A stretch of DNA of 64,000 nt. Source: Acidimicrobiia bacterium (GTDB lineage: Bacteria > Actinomycetota > Acidimicrobiia > Spongiisociales > SHLN01). The first letter of the stretch is position 1. Each line of letters starts with the position of its first letter. The notes under the pieces are model-generated. The model was not told the origin of the DNA. It ran no database searches and saw only the letters and a program-made list of their open reading frames with translations. Shown piece after piece: positions 10,420 through 24,382 of the stretch. The stretch is from positions 787-64,786 of the forward strand of contig JBFKDW010000004.1 of NCBI GenBank assembly GCA_041619515.1, read 5' to 3'. The position numbers and the translations under genes are program-made.

Positions 10420-11471
10420 CGGGCGCCCCAGCCGGGTCAGCCAAGAGGGGACCAGCCGGTGATTGGAAGCGCTGGGCGGGCGGGGCGGTGTCTGTTGCGA
10501 TCGCGGTCGGCCTCCTCGCCGGGGTCCTGCCTGCGATGGCCAACATCGGCGAGGTCTGGCAGTCGATCCAAACGCTCACCTGGCTCGAATCCGCCGGCCT
10601 GCTGGCGCTGGCCGTCTGGAACATCGTGACCTACCAGCTCGTGATCATGTCGGCGCTCCCGGGGCTCACCCTCGGCCGGGCCTTCGTGGTTGGACAGATC
10701 TCAACCGCGGTCACGAACACGCTTCCCGCCGGCAGCGCCGTCGGGGTTGGCATCACCTATGCGATGTTCTCCAGTTTTGGCTTCGACGCCGGATCCATTG
10801 CCATCGCGTCGGTGGTCACCGGCCTGTGGAACACGTTCGTCAAGCTCGGCCTTCCCATCGTGGCTCTTGCCATACTGAGCTTCCAGGGGCAGGGCAACGC
10901 CGCGTTGCAGTCTGCGGCCATCTCCGGCCTGCTCATCCTGGTGGCGGCGGTGGGGGCGCTGGCGCTCACCCTCGCCCGGGAATCCTTTGCTTTCAAAACA
11001 GGGGAGCGGATCGGCAAGGTCGCCAGCGCGGTGGCTCGTCGCATCCGACGAGGCCCGTTCACAGGGTGGGGCGAGCGGCTGGTCGCCTTTCGGTTGCAGA
11101 GCATCGACCTGCTCAGGCGCCGCTGGCATTGGGTGACGCTGGCGACCATCGTGAGTCATCTATCGCTGTTCGCGTTGCTGCTCACCTCACTGCGGCACAT
11201 GGGGGTCTCTGCCGAATCGGTGACAGGTGCCGAGGCGCTTGCGGTGTTCGCCATCGTCCGGCTGCTGACCGCGTTGCCGATAACCCCGGGTGGGCTGGGA
11301 GTGGTGGAGGTGGGCTATACCACCGCCCTGGTGGTGGCAGGCGGAGATGAGGAGCTGGTACTGGCGGCAGTGCTCATCTACCGCGCTCTCAGCTATTTGC
11401 TCCAGGTCCCCCTGGGGATCCTCGCCTACGTCATCTGGCGAACTCGAAGCGATTGGCGAATCACCTACTGA
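10416..11471 (+). CDS. Lysylphosphatidylglycerol synthase TM / YbhN (UPF0104) flippase-like membrane protein
   Basis: Multi-TM; LPITPGGLGVVE and AAVLIYRALSY motifs; GTGA overlap with the peptidase gene. Confidence 0.85.
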   Translation: MTGAPAGSAKRGPAGDWKRWAGGAVSVAIAVGLLAGVLPAMANIGEVWQSIQTLTWLESAGLLALAVWNIVTYQLVIMSALPGLTLGRAFVVGQISTAVTNTLPAGSAVGVGITYAMFSSFGFDAGSIAIASVVTGLWNTFVKLGLPIVALAILSFQGQGNAALQSAAISGLLILVAAVGALALTLARESFAFKTGERIGKVASAVARRIRRGPFTGWGERLVAFRLQSIDLLRRRWHWVTLATIVSHLSLFALLLTSLRHMGVSAESVTGAEALAVFAIVRLLTALPITPGGLGVVEVGYTTALVVAGGDEELVLAAVLIYRALSYLLQVPLGILAYVIWRTRSDWRITY

Positions 11472-11545
11472 AAAAATGGCGGCTCCTCGCTCCATCGAGG
11501 GGACACCGGTACATGTCCTCGAAGGAGCGAGGGTACCCCGCCGCC
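11471..11545 (-). terminator. Long imperfect hairpin with U-tract; likely intrinsic terminator of the peptide gene, possibly bidirectional
   Basis: GGCGGC(11478-83)/GCCGCC(11540-45), CCTCGCTCC(11485-93)/GGAGCGAGG(11524-32), GGACA/TGTCC. A6 at 11471-76 reads U6 on the minus strand; TTTCT follows on the plus strand. Confidence 0.75.
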
Positions 11546-11577
11546 TTTCTGCCCCGCTGAACGGGGAGATCTGCTGG

Positions 11578-11670
11578 TTAACTCCCCCAGTTCCCGTTGG
11601 CGAGAGCTGGCGCCGAAACGGCCAGGAACGTCAGCAAGCTGACGGAAAAAACGTAGATGCGCCTGCGCAT
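11578..11670 (-). CDS. 30-aa secreted pro-peptide MRRRIYVFSVSLLTFLAVSAPALANGNWGS (candidate signalling peptide precursor)
   Basis: Manual translation (below the ORF-track cutoff). AGGAGG RBS shortly before the ATG, basic N-region, hydrophobic H-region, A-L-A cleavage motif, TAA stop and a downstream terminator. Confidence 0.8.
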   Translation of the reverse strand: MRRRIYVFSVSLLTFLAVSAPALANGNWGS

Positions 11671-11763
11671 GGGGCTGCCTCCTGTATCGGGTACCGCACA
11701 GGTATCCCACAAGGGTGTCTGCGGTCTATCTCAGATCGCAGCCGGCAGGGGCCTACCTTGCGC

Positions 11764-14700
11764 TCATCCGGGCCGGCCCCGGGTGCGAATGGTGTGGCCG
11801 GCTCGCCGGAGAGTGTCGATGTCGCGGCGCACGGTGGCGGTACTTACCCCGAGGGCCTCTGCCAGGTCGGCGATGGTGGGGGCGGCCCCGGCGGCGGCGG
11901 CTTCGCTGGTGAGGCGCAGAATTTGCTGTCCCCGAACGGCGGGGCCGCCCTCGAGCGTGTCGTCGAGCGGATGGTTGATCGTCCAGGTAACGTCGATGAG
12001 CTCCCGAGCGCTGATGGGACGCCCGGTGGGAGTCCCTGCCGCTGCCAGGCGCACGGTGATTTGATAGGGGCGCGCCGCCTGCCAGGCGTCGGCGAGCGTA
12101 CGGTGGAGCGGCACCCGGGTCAGGCTGCGATTGACCTCCTCGGGCCCGAGCCCTTTCAGCTGCCGGAGCATGGCCGCATGCGCCGCGTCCAGCGTTGCGT
12201 ATGCTGCCGAGTAGTCGCCGAGCATTTCCTGGGCACGCATTCGCCAATAGAGGAGGTCGGCCTCCTGTGCCCAGCCACGCCAGTCTTCGGTCGCAGCAAG
12301 TGCTCCGGCTGGGTCGCCGTTGAGCACCAGCGCCCTGGCATAGGGGACGTTCAGGTCGGGCAGCAGCCATTCGGTGCCCGAGGCGGTGCACGCCGCCCGT
12401 CCTTCCCTGGCAACCCGCAGGCCCGCCTGCAATTCTCCAGCGTCGAGGTGGAGATGAGCCGCAGTCCGGAGCAGCTGCAGCCTGGCGTTGGTTGCTTCCG
12501 GGCCCGAGGCCTTGGAAAGCCCGGCGGCCAGCTCGGCATGCGCCAGGATCGAGTCACCATCGCGCCTGGCGATCTCTGCCAGGGTCCCGTGGCACAGCGC
12601 GGCCCCCGAGGCATGTCCCAGCGAATCGAAGATCGCCAGCGCCTCGTTGCTCAGTCGCTTGGCCGCTTCGTCGTCCCCGAGGGCATGGTGGAGGCTGGCC
12701 ATGTTGGCGGTGGCCATGGCGAGGCCCCTGCGGCTGTCCATGGCCTGGAACACGCCCCGGCTTCGCTCGGCCGGGGTCATTGCCCGGGCCGCCTTGCCCG
12801 AGATCGTGTAGTGATGACCGAGGTTGAGCGCGTTGATCGCAACGCCGTAGCGGTAGCCGATCTCCTCACACAGGCCGGCGGCCCGCAGCAGCGTCGACTC
12901 CACCAGCGTGTCTTCCCCCCTCTGTCCGTACATGACGGCGAACGATCCCAGGATCCCGGCCAGCCCCCGCTGATCCCGGTGCTTCTCGTAAATGGCCTGG
13001 GCCGCGGCCAGGTGCCGCTCCGCCTCCTCGAAGCGATTCAGGTGGAGCAACGCATCCGCGAGAGCGTTGCGGATGCTTGCCTCGAGGACGGCCTCACCGG
13101 AGGCAAGGCGGAGCCCGGACTCCAGCCATTCGACTGCATCGACATGGCGTGATCCCCACATTGCGATGGTGCCCAGCACTTGCAGGTCGCGAGCCTGGCC
13201 CTCGGCATCGGCCAGTTCGGTGTGTCGTTCCAGGGCTGCGACCGCCAGGCGTTCGGCTTCGTCGAGCCGGGAGGTCGAGGCCAGCAGCCAGGCACGCCGG
13301 TGCGTGAGCTCGGCGGCCAGCACCGGGTCGTCTTTCGCCGAAGCATGCAATTGGTCCAGCAGCGTCTGCTGGCCGTCACGATCGGCCAGCACTTCCAGAA
13401 TCTGCTCGAGTGCCAGCCGCAGGCGGGACTGGTCGGCCATGCCCCAACCGGCAGACTCCGCCGCCTCCAGCGCTTCGTGGTAGCGATCCCGGGCGGCTGC
13501 GTAGGCGCTGAGCGATCGGGCTTCCTGGGCCGCCTGCTCGAGGTAGTCGGCGGCCTCGTCCGGCACACCGCCGAGGCGGAAATGGTGGCCGAGGTGAGCC
13601 GGGTCGATGATTCCGGCGCGCTTCATCTGCCAGGCAACCCGCCGGTGGAGGTTGGGCCGCTCGTCCGCCGGCATCGAATCGTATGCCACCTGGGCGAGCT
13701 GATCGTGGGCAAGGGCGTACCGTTCGGTCGCCGTTGAGATCATTCCCGCCCGGATGAGGTAGTCGACCGCATCCAGCACCTGTGGCCTCGGAATCTCGCA
13801 CACTTCCGCCAGAGCGTCGATGTCCATGCCCGACCCGCTCACCGCCAGCGCCCTGGCGGCGTGCCGGGGCTCGCCCGGCAGCGCGTCGAGCCGGTTGGAT
13901 ATCAGCTCGAAAACGGTGCCGGACACCGGCAGTTGCTCCATGTCAACGGCCGGGACGCCGAGCGGGGGCTTGAGCGCCTCGCTCACGTTGCGCTCGTGGA
14001 TGGCGCGCAGCGTTTCCAGCATGAACAACGCGTTGCCGCCGGTAGCAGCGTGAATCCGGCTCACGAGCGTCCCGGTCGAGCCTTCCGGCATCAGCCTGCG
14101 GACGAGTTCACCCGTCTCGGATGCGGTCAGCGGCTCGAGCAGTATGCGCGTCTGCCGGCCAGACCGGTCGAGTGCCCGCACCGTCTGCCACTGGCCGGGC
14201 TGTGCCTCGAGCTCGAGACGGCGGTAGGCCACGCATATGAGCAGCGGCGTGTCGGCCAGATCGGCGGCGAGGGCTTCCAATGCCCACAAAGTGTCCTCGT
14301 CGATCCGATGGAGGTCATCGAGGATCAGCATGGTGGGTGTGAGCTGGGCGAGCGCTACGAAGGTGCGATGGAACGCTTCCCGGACCCGGTCTCGCTCCTC
14401 CGACCCGTCCCTCAGCGCCACGCCGCCTGCAAGATCTGGTGCCCAGCGCCCCACCGCCGGCAGGAGTGGCGCGAGCGCCCGCAGCCATACGCCGTCCATT
14501 CGCTCGACCAGCTGACGGATCCGCAGTTCGGTCAGACCGTCTTCGAGGGAGCGCCTGAGTCCTTCGAAGGGTGTGGTTACCCCGGAAGAGGTAGGCCCGC
14601 CCCACAGCACGCTGAGGCCGCGCCAGTTTGCGTCCTCGGCACACTCGGTGAGGAGCCGGGTCTTGCCCACTCCCGGTTCACCTTCCAGCAGCACGACGCC

Positions 14701-15585
14701 GCCTCGCCCCGCCAGAGCATCCTCCATGCGGGCGATGATCTCGTGGCGCTCGGCGGCGCGTCCGACCAGCGGGGTCGCGTCTGCCTCGAACAGACGGGAA
14801 CGGCTGTTCTCTGCGAGAGGGACGATCGGTGTGTGTCGACCGATCACGATCTCCTCGCGCAGGGCGTCGGTCTCGGCGGCAGGTGCGGCGCCGATTTCCG
14901 TGGCGAGAATCGAGGCGCAGCGCTCGTACTGAGCCAAGGCCTCGTTGGGGCGTCCGAGCAGGTAGCACAGGCGCATGACTTCCCGGTGGGCCTCCTCGTG
15001 AAGGGGATCGAGCAGCGCCAGCCGGCGAGCGTAGACCAGCGCCTGGTCGAAATCACCCCAGCTCTTGCTCAAGCGGACGATGTGGTTGAGGACCGCGAAC
15101 AGGGCCTGGCGAAGACGCTCCTGCTCGACCAATATCCAGTCGTCGTAGAAACCCGCCAGGAAATCCCCGGCGTACAGCCGCACTGCCTCCATGAGGCTGT
15201 CGAGAGCTGCGGCATGGTCCGGCGTGTCGTCGCTCTTGAGCATCGCAACGGCCGACTCGAAGACATCGACGTCAACCCACGCTCCAGCGTCGGCGTTGAA
15301 TCGGATGGTGGTGGGGCTCGTCTGGATGTACCCGTCGAGGTCGGCGGCCTCGCTGAGCACCGATTGGATCTGCCAGAGCGCGTGGCTCAACCGCCGCCGG
15401 GCCTGGGTCTCGGGCATGTCGGGCCAGAACAAGCCGGCCAGGAGGTCGCGGGTCGGGGCAGTGTGACGGTTGGCGACCAGGTACGCGAGCAGCGAGCGGC
15501 CGGCGCGGGAAGCTATCGGCGGCAACGGCTCGCCCCTCGCTTCCAGCGTGAGGCCGCCAAACATGCGGATTCGCAGCCCGTTCAC
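11764..15585 (-). CDS. Large SARP/AfsR-like regulator: wHTH + BTAD + STAND/AAA NTPase + TPRs + C-terminal DUF1670-like HTH
   Basis: LRIRMFGGL, RDLLAGLFWPD, LDPLHEEAHREVMR (BTAD), GEPGVGKT (Walker A), LILDDLH (Walker B), TPR-like helices, LAEALGVSTATVRRDIDTLR...TRG. GTG 15585 chosen because TACCTT lies 6 nt upstream. Confidence 0.9.
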   Translation of the reverse strand: MNGLRIRMFGGLTLEARGEPLPPIASRAGRSLLAYLVANRHTAPTRDLLAGLFWPDMPETQARRRLSHALWQIQSVLSEAADLDGYIQTSPTTIRFNADAGAWVDVDVFESAVAMLKSDDTPDHAAALDSLMEAVRLYAGDFLAGFYDDWILVEQERLRQALFAVLNHIVRLSKSWGDFDQALVYARRLALLDPLHEEAHREVMRLCYLLGRPNEALAQYERCASILATEIGAAPAAETDALREEIVIGRHTPIVPLAENSRSRLFEADATPLVGRAAERHEIIARMEDALAGRGGVVLLEGEPGVGKTRLLTECAEDANWRGLSVLWGGPTSSGVTTPFEGLRRSLEDGLTELRIRQLVERMDGVWLRALAPLLPAVGRWAPDLAGGVALRDGSEERDRVREAFHRTFVALAQLTPTMLILDDLHRIDEDTLWALEALAADLADTPLLICVAYRRLELEAQPGQWQTVRALDRSGRQTRILLEPLTASETGELVRRLMPEGSTGTLVSRIHAATGGNALFMLETLRAIHERNVSEALKPPLGVPAVDMEQLPVSGTVFELISNRLDALPGEPRHAARALAVSGSGMDIDALAEVCEIPRPQVLDAVDYLIRAGMISTATERYALAHDQLAQVAYDSMPADERPNLHRRVAWQMKRAGIIDPAHLGHHFRLGGVPDEAADYLEQAAQEARSLSAYAAARDRYHEALEAAESAGWGMADQSRLRLALEQILEVLADRDGQQTLLDQLHASAKDDPVLAAELTHRRAWLLASTSRLDEAERLAVAALERHTELADAEGQARDLQVLGTIAMWGSRHVDAVEWLESGLRLASGEAVLEASIRNALADALLHLNRFEEAERHLAAAQAIYEKHRDQRGLAGILGSFAVMYGQRGEDTLVESTLLRAAGLCEEIGYRYGVAINALNLGHHYTISGKAARAMTPAERSRGVFQAMDSRRGLAMATANMASLHHALGDDEAAKRLSNEALAIFDSLGHASGAALCHGTLAEIARRDGDSILAHAELAAGLSKASGPEATNARLQLLRTAAHLHLDAGELQAGLRVAREGRAACTASGTEWLLPDLNVPYARALVLNGDPAGALAATEDWRGWAQEADLLYWRMRAQEMLGDYSAAYATLDAAHAAMLRQLKGLGPEEVNRSLTRVPLHRTLADAWQAARPYQITVRLAAAGTPTGRPISARELIDVTWTINHPLDDTLEGGPAVRGQQILRLTSEAAAAGAAPTIADLAEALGVSTATVRRDIDTLRRAGHTIRTRGRPG

Positions 15586-15631
15586 CCCCTCAAGGTAGTC
15601 GATCCAGGAACTGGATATTCGGGAATCAGAG

Positions 15632-16321
15632 TCACAGGCCGCCGAGCAGTGCGGCAATGACCTCCGGCCGTTCCAGGACGAGGGCATGGCCCGCACCCGG
15701 GACGATCACGAGCTCCGAGCTCGGTCCGATGGCGGCCGCCGTCTCCCGGGCGATCCCGACGTATTCGTGATCGTGCTCACCCGCCACGACTTTCACCGGC
15801 ATCCGCAGTTCGGCGAGGCGTTCCCACAGCGGTTGCTGGGCGCCCTGTCCCAGCCGCCGCAGCTGATCGGCGAGCTGCGCCTCCGAGGTGAGGCGATGGC
15901 GGCGGGCGGAGATCGGGTCGAGACCGGCAAACATCGGCTGGGCGAGCCAGCGGTCGAGGAACGCATCGCAGCCGTTGCGTTCGATCCAATCAGCGAGTTG
16001 CTCGTCCCGTCGCTTCCGCTCCTCACGCTCGTCGGCATCGGCGACGCCGGGATTGGCCGAGATGAGCACGAGCGCGGCAACCCGCCCGGGGTGGTCGAGC
16101 GCCACCCGCAGCGCCAGTCGCCCACCAAGCGAGTATCCCGCCCACACCCCGACGTGCTCGCGTGCGAGGTCCCGGGCCGCGTCCACGAAGCCGATGCCGG
16201 ACGGAATGGTTACCGGCACCGCGCGAGCGGGCCGGGGGAGGGACTCGATTACGGCGCTCCAGGCATCCGCAGTCTGAGAGAACCCCGGCACCAGCAGGTA
16301 GCGAAGATGCTGTTCAATCAC
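15632..16321 (-). CDS. Alpha/beta hydrolase, MenH-like (SHCHC synthase)
   Basis: [40 protein letters not shown]. Confidence 0.8.

Positions 16322-19747: not shown

Positions 19748-24382
<4,635 letters not shown>

Follow-up and report, generated by a model that had tools for sequence, protein, structure and literature searches.

An AfsR-type regulator gene paired with a short gene for a putatively secreted peptide in Acidimicrobiia: a candidate peptide signalling module

In Streptomyces, afsR is followed directly by afsS, the gene of a 63-aa protein that is not secreted. Peptide signalling through cytoplasmic receptors is treated as a speciality of the Bacillota and their phages. Here we describe a locus that bears likeness to both, found in a 64,000-nt stretch of an Acidimicrobiia genome (contig JBFKDW010000004.1; the window hereafter). 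It consists of a gene for a regulator of 1266 aa and, 93 nt behind its stop codon on the same strand, a short open reading frame (sORF) of 30 codons at 11670..11578 (-). Our results revealed that the regulator and the secreted short peptide form a genuine conserved two-gene module, of which we are virtually certain. Because the pairing recurs in more than 100 related sequences from uncultured actinobacteria, the module is a strong candidate for a peptide signalling system that has not been described in this phylum.

The available part of PMC10936776 gives a rule for SARP promoters, by which the direct repeats are spaced by 11 or 22 bp and the 3' one stands 8 bp from the -10 element. In the same part, a 22-bp box serves AfsR to activate afsS, whose -10 is poor, and the tetratricopeptide repeat (TPR) domain of AfsR is described only as a sensor domain whose ligand is not named (PMC10936776). 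For the RRNPP systems, the signature given in the accessible portion of PMC10075063 comprises a propeptide of 10-100 aa that is SignalP-positive, a receptor of 250-500 aa with TPRs, and neighbouring genes. The large-scale detector presented in that portion takes no receptors outside 250-500 aa, and it was applied to Firmicutes and viruses (PMC10075063). Leaderless communication peptides are described in PMC10518010; Rgg-SHP and RopB-LCP are leaderless peptide systems of Bacillota. According to a 2016 review of actinobacterial quorum sensing, reports for Acidimicrobiia or Nitriliruptoria are lacking (PMC4748050). Our literature search, with subscription journals outside its coverage, found no paper that pairs a SARP or STAND regulator with a secreted-peptide gene.

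The peptide gene and the neighbouring regulator

The sORF encodes MRRRIYVFSVSLLTFLAVSAPALANGNWGS and ends in a TAA stop codon (11578..11580 (-)). Its ribosome-binding site (RBS), AGGAGG (11678..11683 (-)), lies 7 nt 5' of the ATG. Codons 1-24, MRRRIYVFSVSLLTFLAVSAPALA (11599..11670 (-)), read as a Sec-type signal peptide by sequence rules: three of the first four residues are R, the hydrophobic core is without charge, and the tail is preceded by P-A-L-A. The tail after P-A-L-A, codons 25-30 (11581..11598 (-)), is the predicted released hexapeptide NGNWGS. The original prediction had named the ORF, its distance from the regulator, the RBS, the stop codon, the signal-peptide features and a terminator behind the ORF, and all of these were found in the sequence, the signal-peptide features by rule and the terminator as a probable one. 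It had also named homologous regulators without such an sORF as a finding that would speak against it, and in the comparison described below the module clearly withstood this test.

The window's genome is a metagenome-assembled genome (MAG) of 3.1 Mb, 95.65% complete, which makes 6.2 Mb when both strands are counted. Regulator homologues (E <= 1e-50) were present in 39 of 61 related genomes and in 13/13 other searched genomes of the window's family, and most genomes of its genus carry two regulator paralogues. A scan of species-representative genomes yielded 183 relatives; the best 80 of the 183 were used, nearly all of them MAGs labelled Acidimicrobiia, Nitriliruptorales or Actinomycetota. 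A metagenome scan yielded 184 further relatives, of which 80 were kept. A locus entered the comparison if it was unique, held the end of the regulator gene and had at least 150 nt downstream. Twenty-six of the first 113 loci were skipped, as were 25 of the 80 metagenome loci, from which 12 duplicates were also dropped. The comparison comprised 119 loci (76 genomic and 43 metagenomic). At 107 of these, a signal-peptide sORF was found downstream of the regulator on the same strand; 105 came from the finder, and L087 and L056 (the latter cut by a contig end) from other checks. A short ORF without signal peptide that kept the tail motif was seen at three loci and an unrelated 92-aa ORF at four, and nothing recognisable stood downstream of the regulator at five of the 119. 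The sORF products were 29-34 aa long (105 loci), and the gap to the regulator stop varied from 56 to 265 nt in relatives.

A strict detector that combined signal-peptide features with an RBS found the sORF at 63/76 loci vs 0/76 reverse-complement controls. Applied to the window's own genome on both strands, it returned six ORFs, two of which were those behind the regulator paralogues. The dN/dS of the sORF was 0.09-0.23 in four clades, with variable sites mostly at third codon positions; the sORFs are under purifying selection. The sORF is a real gene because it is conserved, because the reverse-complement and genome controls were clean, and because of its dN/dS. The notion of a chance ORF in a GC-rich intergenic region could point to its mere 30 codons and to the sequencing runs listed, among which no RNA run contains the locus. 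However, the comparative data (107/119 loci, the dN/dS range, the RBS and 0/76 in the reverse-strand control) have already refuted it. A public protein collection also contains the exact 30-aa product, with no name attached (NCBI and Logan sources; 101 contigs).

The same genome encodes another full-length paralogue of the regulator, at 40% identity (G000:C27:12555-16355 (-), locus L002). This paralogue has its own sORF of 30 codons 78 nt downstream (L002 1306-1398 (-)), encoding MRRLVTFALALATAMALFAQSAFA-AVVNIR, and the AVVNIR tail is identical in six genomes of the genus. Contigs with both modules (L037/L043 and L038/L053, from two MAGs) are labelled 'uncultured Gammaproteobacteria', and others are labelled Acidobacteria; their content matches Acidimicrobiia relatives, and these labels therefore look wrong.

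The anatomy of the prepeptide was examined in 66 distinct sequences of the first locus set. All 66 had two or three R/K in the first six residues, and only two had D/E within the signal peptide. At the predicted cleavage site, A stood at -1 in 66/66 and at -3 in 59/66, and P at -4 in 56/66. The signal peptide measured 24-25 residues in 62/66, and tails of 6, 7 and 5 aa were present in 46, 16 and 4 prepeptides, respectively. Cys was present anywhere in two of the 66, and in none at +1. Part of these signal-peptide statistics follows from the rule by which the cut was placed, but the outcome was far narrower than the rule. The 66 prepeptides carried 52 distinct tails, grouped in clade-specific classes that include xGxWGx, AV(V/L)N(I/M)x, SxSxMS, (I/T)(L/W)RPGH and GTxYMx. 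Twin-arginine export was judged unlikely, RR being swapped for RK, KR or TK in many prepeptides. The window's genome encodes two S26 signal peptidases and three SBP_bac_5 (family-5) solute-binding proteins, all elsewhere than the module.

This anatomy bears on two further explanations of the sORF. In the first, the product would be a membrane micro-protein: the signal anchor would stay uncleaved, and the 30-aa product would modulate a transporter or kinase or act like a toxin. The product is indeed mostly one hydrophobic helix whose cleavage is only predicted, and a loose link to a transporter is provided by the promoter box that precedes an MFS gene in four genomes of the same genus (see below). 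However, the residues at -1, -3 and -4 are those expected of a cleavage site rather than an anchor, and the helix length is fixed in 62 of the 66. The helix is only loosely conserved between clades while the tails are conserved within clades, and three variants do without the helix altogether. We consider a membrane micro-protein improbable. In the second, the sORF would encode a precursor like those of ribosomally synthesized and post-translationally modified peptides (RiPPs), with an N-terminal leader for a modifying enzyme and a tail that is modified or cyclised. Short precursors with a variable C-terminal core would look like this, and some of the tails hold W, M or H. However, no modifying, cyclising or dedicated export genes were conserved beside the module, the only conserved upstream gene being that of an alpha/beta hydrolase in one clade. 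In addition, all n/h/c features of a Sec signal peptide are present in the N-terminal part, and Cys occurs in just 2/66 prepeptides. A RiPP-like precursor is thus very improbable.

The regulator gene occupies 11764..15564 (-), with its TGA stop at 11766-11764. The frame is open from 15696, upstream of the start codon M45 at 15564, which is backed by the public gene call and by the alignment with relatives; the domain residue numbers given here are counted in this open frame (start = residue 45). The SARP domain, comprising a winged-helix DNA-binding part and BTAD (14827..15564 (-), residues 45-290), was recognised by the Pfam match to BTAD (7e-24, residues 141-283) and by profile matches to the EmbR structure 2fez and the AfsR SARP structure 8hvr; it contains a block, RRRLS..LWQ, that is invariant in the family alignment. 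The STAND/NOD NTPase region follows (13477..14826 (-), residues 291-740; AAA_16, 1e-21), with Walker A (GEPGVGKT at 339) and Walker B (MLILDD at 456) both intact. In the family alignment, the Walker glycines, the Walker B aspartates and a neighbouring R are invariant and the Walker A lysine is nearly so.

The TPR sensor region (12112..13476 (-), residues ~741-1195, core 825-1064) was delimited by profile matches to TPR structures. In the single sequence, Pfam TPR_12 scored 26.8 bits, under the cut-off of 30.1. The family profile matched the AfsR structures 8k60/8jke at ~1e-25, the best-scoring stretch being AfsR residues 726-973. For the TPR region, profile matches were to the AfsR TPR, LGN/Pins, kinesin light chain and PH0952 (6mfv, 7e-14), with a weak one to RapJ (4gyo, 1.7e-6). 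A winged helix-turn-helix (HTH) domain that is HTH_11/DeoR-like/DUF1670-like closes the protein (11767..12111 (-), residues 1196-1310; HTH_11 1e-8, HTH_DeoR 6e-8) and is conserved in the family alignments. No transmembrane segment was found in the regulator. The size of ~1270 aa given in the original prediction was close to the actual one, but its end coordinate of 15597 has to be dropped, as there is no start codon at that position; its SARP/BTAD-NTPase-TPR architecture stands, but the C-terminal HTH had been missed. With a SARP domain, a NOD/STAND ATPase carrying Walker A and B, a TPR sensor and the promoter rule described below, the regulator is an AfsR-type large SARP by sequence and architecture, to which the C-terminal HTH is an addition. 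Public names of such regulators are only 'SARP family activator', 'AAA family ATPase', 'BTAD' or 'DUF1670'.

Predicted promoter of the peptide gene

A motif search across loci detected a SARP-box-like tandem direct repeat, GAGATAG-ACCG-CAGACAC with an 11-nt period, ahead of the window's sORF (11715..11732 (-)), and a -10-like hexamer, GATACC (11701..11706 (-)), stands 8 nt after the second repeat. Between regulator and sORF, 85/105 loci carry a pair of heptamers with an 11-nt spacing and the consensus GAGACAn-4 nt-GAGACAc. At 72 of the 85 box-bearing loci, a NANNNT hexamer (mostly CATnnT) begins exactly 8 nt past the second heptamer, whereas each of the other offsets from 4 to 12 was seen at two loci at most; the window's hexamer is among the 13 box-bearing loci that lack NANNNT at offset 8. 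The box did not occur on the antisense strand in any of the 68 loci of the first set. In the 6.2 Mb of the window's own genome there were 13 box matches, one of which was a chance match in 16S rRNA. As read from the sequence, the box and -10 anatomy of the sORF conforms to the SARP promoter rule, and the regulator probably activates the peptide gene, a link that had escaped the original prediction.

Other clades presented other upstream regions. The region upstream of the AVVNIR module had no GAGACA box and contained an RBS-sequestering inverted repeat, CTCCTC...GAGAGGAGG. In the xRPGH clade (L017, L047, L070, L147 and others), a perfect inverted repeat, TCCTCCTG...CAGGAGGA, in the 5' untranslated region would pair with the RBS, which suggests translational control of the prepeptide. 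For clade B, CTGTGGT/CTGTAGT repeats were seen, and no consistent box could be defined.

The SARP-box promoter explains why regulator and sORF adjoin, as a regulator and its target, and the peptide need not be the ligand of the regulator. The module could therefore be an output-only one like AfsR-AfsS, in which the regulator drives the sORF and the secreted hexapeptide is merely a product. The peptide would then be read by another receptor, such as a membrane kinase, or have no signalling role, and the TPR/NOD part would sense phosphorylation, nucleotides or a metabolite. For this explanation speaks that the promoter accounts fully for the adjacency. AfsR drives the small gene afsS and is itself under kinase and ATP control, according to the available part of PMC10936776. 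Furthermore, one clade carries the same box before an unrelated cytoplasmic protein of 92 aa, and the co-divergence of tail and TPRs described below becomes weaker once peptide class is controlled.

The tail and its possible receptor

Three loci encode short peptides from which the signal peptide has been lost. In L070 the product is MLRPGHGPS, and its sister L028 has ...PALA-ILRPGH. L147 encodes MRNRLKVVAMWRPGH, and its sister L097 has ...PAMA-IWRPGHP. In L160 the tail is doubled (MRQ-NIEWLR-NIEWLR), its sister clade having TIEWAR and DIGWAR. Box, RBS and the sisters' tail motif are retained in all three, which on the regulator tree represent three separate events, each sister to a different locus with signal peptide. 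Because three independent losses of the signal peptide kept the tail, the hexapeptide tail is very likely the functional unit. The kept tails also fit a target inside the cell, although another export route is possible. This pattern counts against the output-only explanation, under which a product acting only outside the cell would be expected to decay after such losses.

For the idea of the original prediction that the TPR domain may be the receptor of the peptide, the evidence is indirect, and of three lines none is decisive. After the kept tails, the second line came from the divergence of the regulator domains, compared between a clade with variable tails and the clade with the constant tail AVVNIR in the same six genomes. 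In this single contrast, divergence was 0.219 vs 0.242 for the SARP domain, 0.269 vs 0.315 for the NOD and 0.461 vs 0.339 for the TPR region (variable-tail clade vs constant-tail clade). The TPR core (825-1064) evolved faster than any other part of the protein in the variable-tail clade but most slowly of all parts in the clade with the constant tail; its ratio of ratios was 1.96, a value that 0/300 column permutations reached. Such behaviour in the same genomes also argues against a peptide that is only an output, as does the finding that no second receptor gene is linked to the module. Among independent nearest pairs of 101 regulators (41 pairs), the median ratio of TPR-core to remaining divergence was 0.95 for the 12 same-tail pairs vs 1.32 for the 29 different-tail pairs.

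Several points weigh against the reading that the peptide is sensed by its own regulator. The nearest-pair comparison was not significant in the first set (26 pairs, p = 0.25), and its lower distance bound was altered after this first result. With the 41 pairs the p-value depended on the bound (0.038, 0.002 and 0.0005 at bounds of 0.01, 0.05 and 0.10). When permutation was restricted to within peptide classes, p was 0.58, 0.085 and 0.028 at the same bounds, and the co-divergence therefore mostly reflects one conservative clade against the rest. Activation through the SARP box alone explains the adjacency, which is therefore no evidence for sensing. The same box before a 92-aa protein means, in turn, that the downstream small gene of this family can be a plain output. 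As for the promoter itself, GATACC has A at position 2 and is without T at position 6, and the AVVNIR clade (13 loci of the first set) had no recognisable box. Export and cleavage are predictions from sequence rules. The comparison of conserved neighbours revealed no importer gene or conserved target gene adjoining the module, and the absence of the locus from the RNA runs listed belongs here as well. A co-fold of the alignment of TPR and C-terminal parts with the whole 30-aa prepeptide gave an ipSAE of 0.02 twice; it was run without controls and carries no weight either way.

At the four loci with the unrelated ORF, all of one clade, the proteins behind the box were of 92-94 aa and cytoplasmic, and they represent a different kind of AfsS-like partner. 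They were found at L052 6536-6814 and L106 6513-6797 (+) and also at L169 and L191, in each case behind the same box and -10, and share a block FVIRIWWEE...WRGWVQHV.SGE without belonging to a Pfam family. L052 and L106 come from MAGs labelled Anaerolineales or Chloroflexota, and L169 and L191 from unlabelled metagenome contigs.

Taken together, we propose the following mechanism. The SARP domain would bind the two 11-nt-spaced heptamers 8 nt from the -10 and activate the sORF, as AfsR does at afsS, and this step we consider probable. With similar likelihood, the 30-aa product would be exported by Sec and cut after P-A-L-A by signal peptidase I, so that NGNWGS is freed; the released hexapeptide is probably the active product. 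Outside the cell the hexapeptide would accumulate, enter through an Opp/Dpp-type transporter and bind the TPR sensor of its own regulator. The binding would switch the STAND ATPase or its oligomerisation state, by which an autoinduction loop would be closed and other SARP-box promoters would fire. For uptake, binding, switching and autoinduction, taken jointly as one step, the odds seem to us about even, and the same holds for a closed signalling loop in which the peptide is sensed by its own regulator. The two modules in each genome of the window's genus, with their unrelated tails (xGxWGx and AVVNIR) and different promoters, would represent two orthogonal channels. To the full reading, in which a Sec-released hexapeptide is the ligand of an AfsR-type STAND activator that drives the peptide's own gene, as the first cytoplasmic-receptor peptide-pheromone system outside Bacillota, we tentatively assign a probability of about 0.45. 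The output-only explanation is a serious possibility, though on the evidence above a somewhat doubtful one.

If other promoters respond to the regulator, they may be sought by the same pattern. The box with its -10 had 24 matches in 41 related genomes vs 3 for the reversed control, and about 10 of the 24 were sORF promoters. An MFS_3/MFS_1 transporter gene, whose mRNA is probably leaderless, has the box directly ahead of its ATG in four genomes of the window's genus (L220 1540-2751 (+); G001:C253, G003:C71 and G007:C187). The transporter is a candidate member of the regulon on the basis of this pattern search; a tblastn search did not find the box-bearing gene in the window's genome. Two more sites with box and -10 were present in that genome, at G000:C14:4377-4408 (-) and G000:C105:2204-2235 (-). 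The genes behind them encode a 256-aa HEAT-repeat protein and a protein of >725 aa without Pfam match. Neither gene was found in 14 relatives, and conservation was thus unable to support them as targets.

In addition to the promoter, two conserved elements flank the sORF. On its 3' side, a two-hairpin element that ends in a U run (11472..11569 (-)) was defined by fold and conservation. The RNA of this region (11580-11470) folds at -57.5 kcal/mol (z = -5.7; 0/200 shuffles as stable), and the element is probably the terminator of the sORF transcript. A simple terminator scan missed the hairpins because its loop limit was too small. The element is near-invariant in seven genomes whose regulators share just 61-74% identity; its conservation within the genus exceeds that of the sORF coding sequence, and it is single copy in the window's genome. 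It contains GGTACCC, which is present again just ahead of the RBS. A search of 11350-11850 against Rfam gave no family, the sole match being a chance miRNA-like one (E = 5.7). On the 5' side, a 12-nt motif, TGAGCGCAAGGT (11755..11766 (-)), lies at or overlaps the regulator stop codon in many clades. It is kept in distant clades, even at loci whose true stop lies upstream of the motif. An exact match occurs once in the window's genome; one-mismatch matches numbered 24 (the exact one included) vs 15 for the control, and a dispersed element was therefore rejected. The motif may act as an RNA signal or may be bound by the extra C-terminal HTH.

Upstream of the regulator, an alpha/beta hydrolase gene (15632-16321 (-), at a distance of ~67 nt) is conserved throughout the window's clade and at no other loci, and may be co-transcribed with the regulator. 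A phosphofructokinase gene also lies upstream. On the other side, a convergent gene (LPG_synthase_TM) ends at 11471. A hybrid histidine kinase of 1544 aa (19748-24382 (+)), with GAF, several PAS, HisKA, HATPase, receiver and Hpt domains, is encoded 4 kb from the module, and no link between the two was found. The stretch is contained in six DNA sequencing runs, which belong to three studies (marine and one soil metagenome); four of the runs may be its source.

Significance and comparison with known systems

If the proposed loop is true, the sensor domain of large SARPs would gain in the hexapeptides its first natural class of ligands. The module would be a self-contained autoinducing switch with two orthogonal channels per genome, and at least 52 peptide 'words' would be in use across uncultured Acidimicrobiia and Nitriliruptorales. 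With an encoded candidate ligand beside more than 100 AfsR-like regulators, the question of the large-SARP ligand becomes testable with synthetic peptides. Even as a mere output, the module would be a clean natural case of a SARP-box promoter with exact spacing and would add a family of minimal secreted peptides from uncultured actinobacteria that abound in marine and sediment habitats.

With MalT-type STAND regulators and PH0952, the regulator shares an ATPase module and, behind it, a repeat sensor for what would be a small ligand. MalT is a ligand-switched STAND regulator. However, the ligand proposed here is a gene-encoded secreted peptide.

Leaderless signalling is approached by the three loci that encode peptides of 9-15 aa without signal peptide beside the regulator, as in Rgg-SHP and RopB-LCP. 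They differ in that the leaderless forms here derive from a signal-peptide-bearing gene and in that the receptors are unrelated.

The likeness to the RRNPP systems (Rap-Phr, NprR-NprX, PlcR-PapR and AimR-AimP) is closer. In both, the gene of a cytoplasmic TPR protein adjoins that of a small propeptide, whose export by Sec is here predicted; the signal would consist of its last 5-7 residues, the tails are diverse, and two modules can stand in one genome. The tandem duplicated tail of one variant (L160) is a further likeness; duplications in Phr propeptides are reportedly the subject of one published paper (PMC11343458). Four of the five features of the RRNPP signature are either present (a small propeptide, TPRs and adjacency) or predicted by sequence rules (Sec secretion), but the receptor is of 1266 aa vs 250-500 aa. 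It also has SARP and STAND ATPase domains, and to our knowledge no RRNPP receptor has either. The propeptide here is minimal, the signal peptide being followed directly by the tail, so that no extra extracellular processing is needed; the phylum is another one, and peptide-receptor binding is here only a candidate. The RRNPP-like layout of the original prediction held as far as adjacency, TPRs and a small propeptide are concerned, but not for receptor size, and the nearest system proved to be another.

That system is AfsR-AfsS, not RRNPP, because the promoter follows the SARP rule and the regulator matches the AfsR and EmbR profiles. Regulator and AfsR have the domain order SARP-NOD (STAND ATPase)-TPR in common. 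The target is a small gene in both. The promoter, with its 11-nt direct repeats and a weak -10 situated 8 nt from the 3' one, follows the rule given in PMC10936776. However, the small gene here encodes a Sec signal peptide with a tail of 5-7 aa and not a cytoplasmic protein, and the regulator has an extra C-terminal HTH, which AfsR is without, and a longer TPR region. The hosts here are Acidimicrobiia and Nitriliruptorales. As AfsS is a 63-aa protein that is not secreted, homology between the sORF and AfsS is unlikely. We rate the module as an AfsR/AfsS-like cassette whose small gene became a Phr-like secreted peptide.

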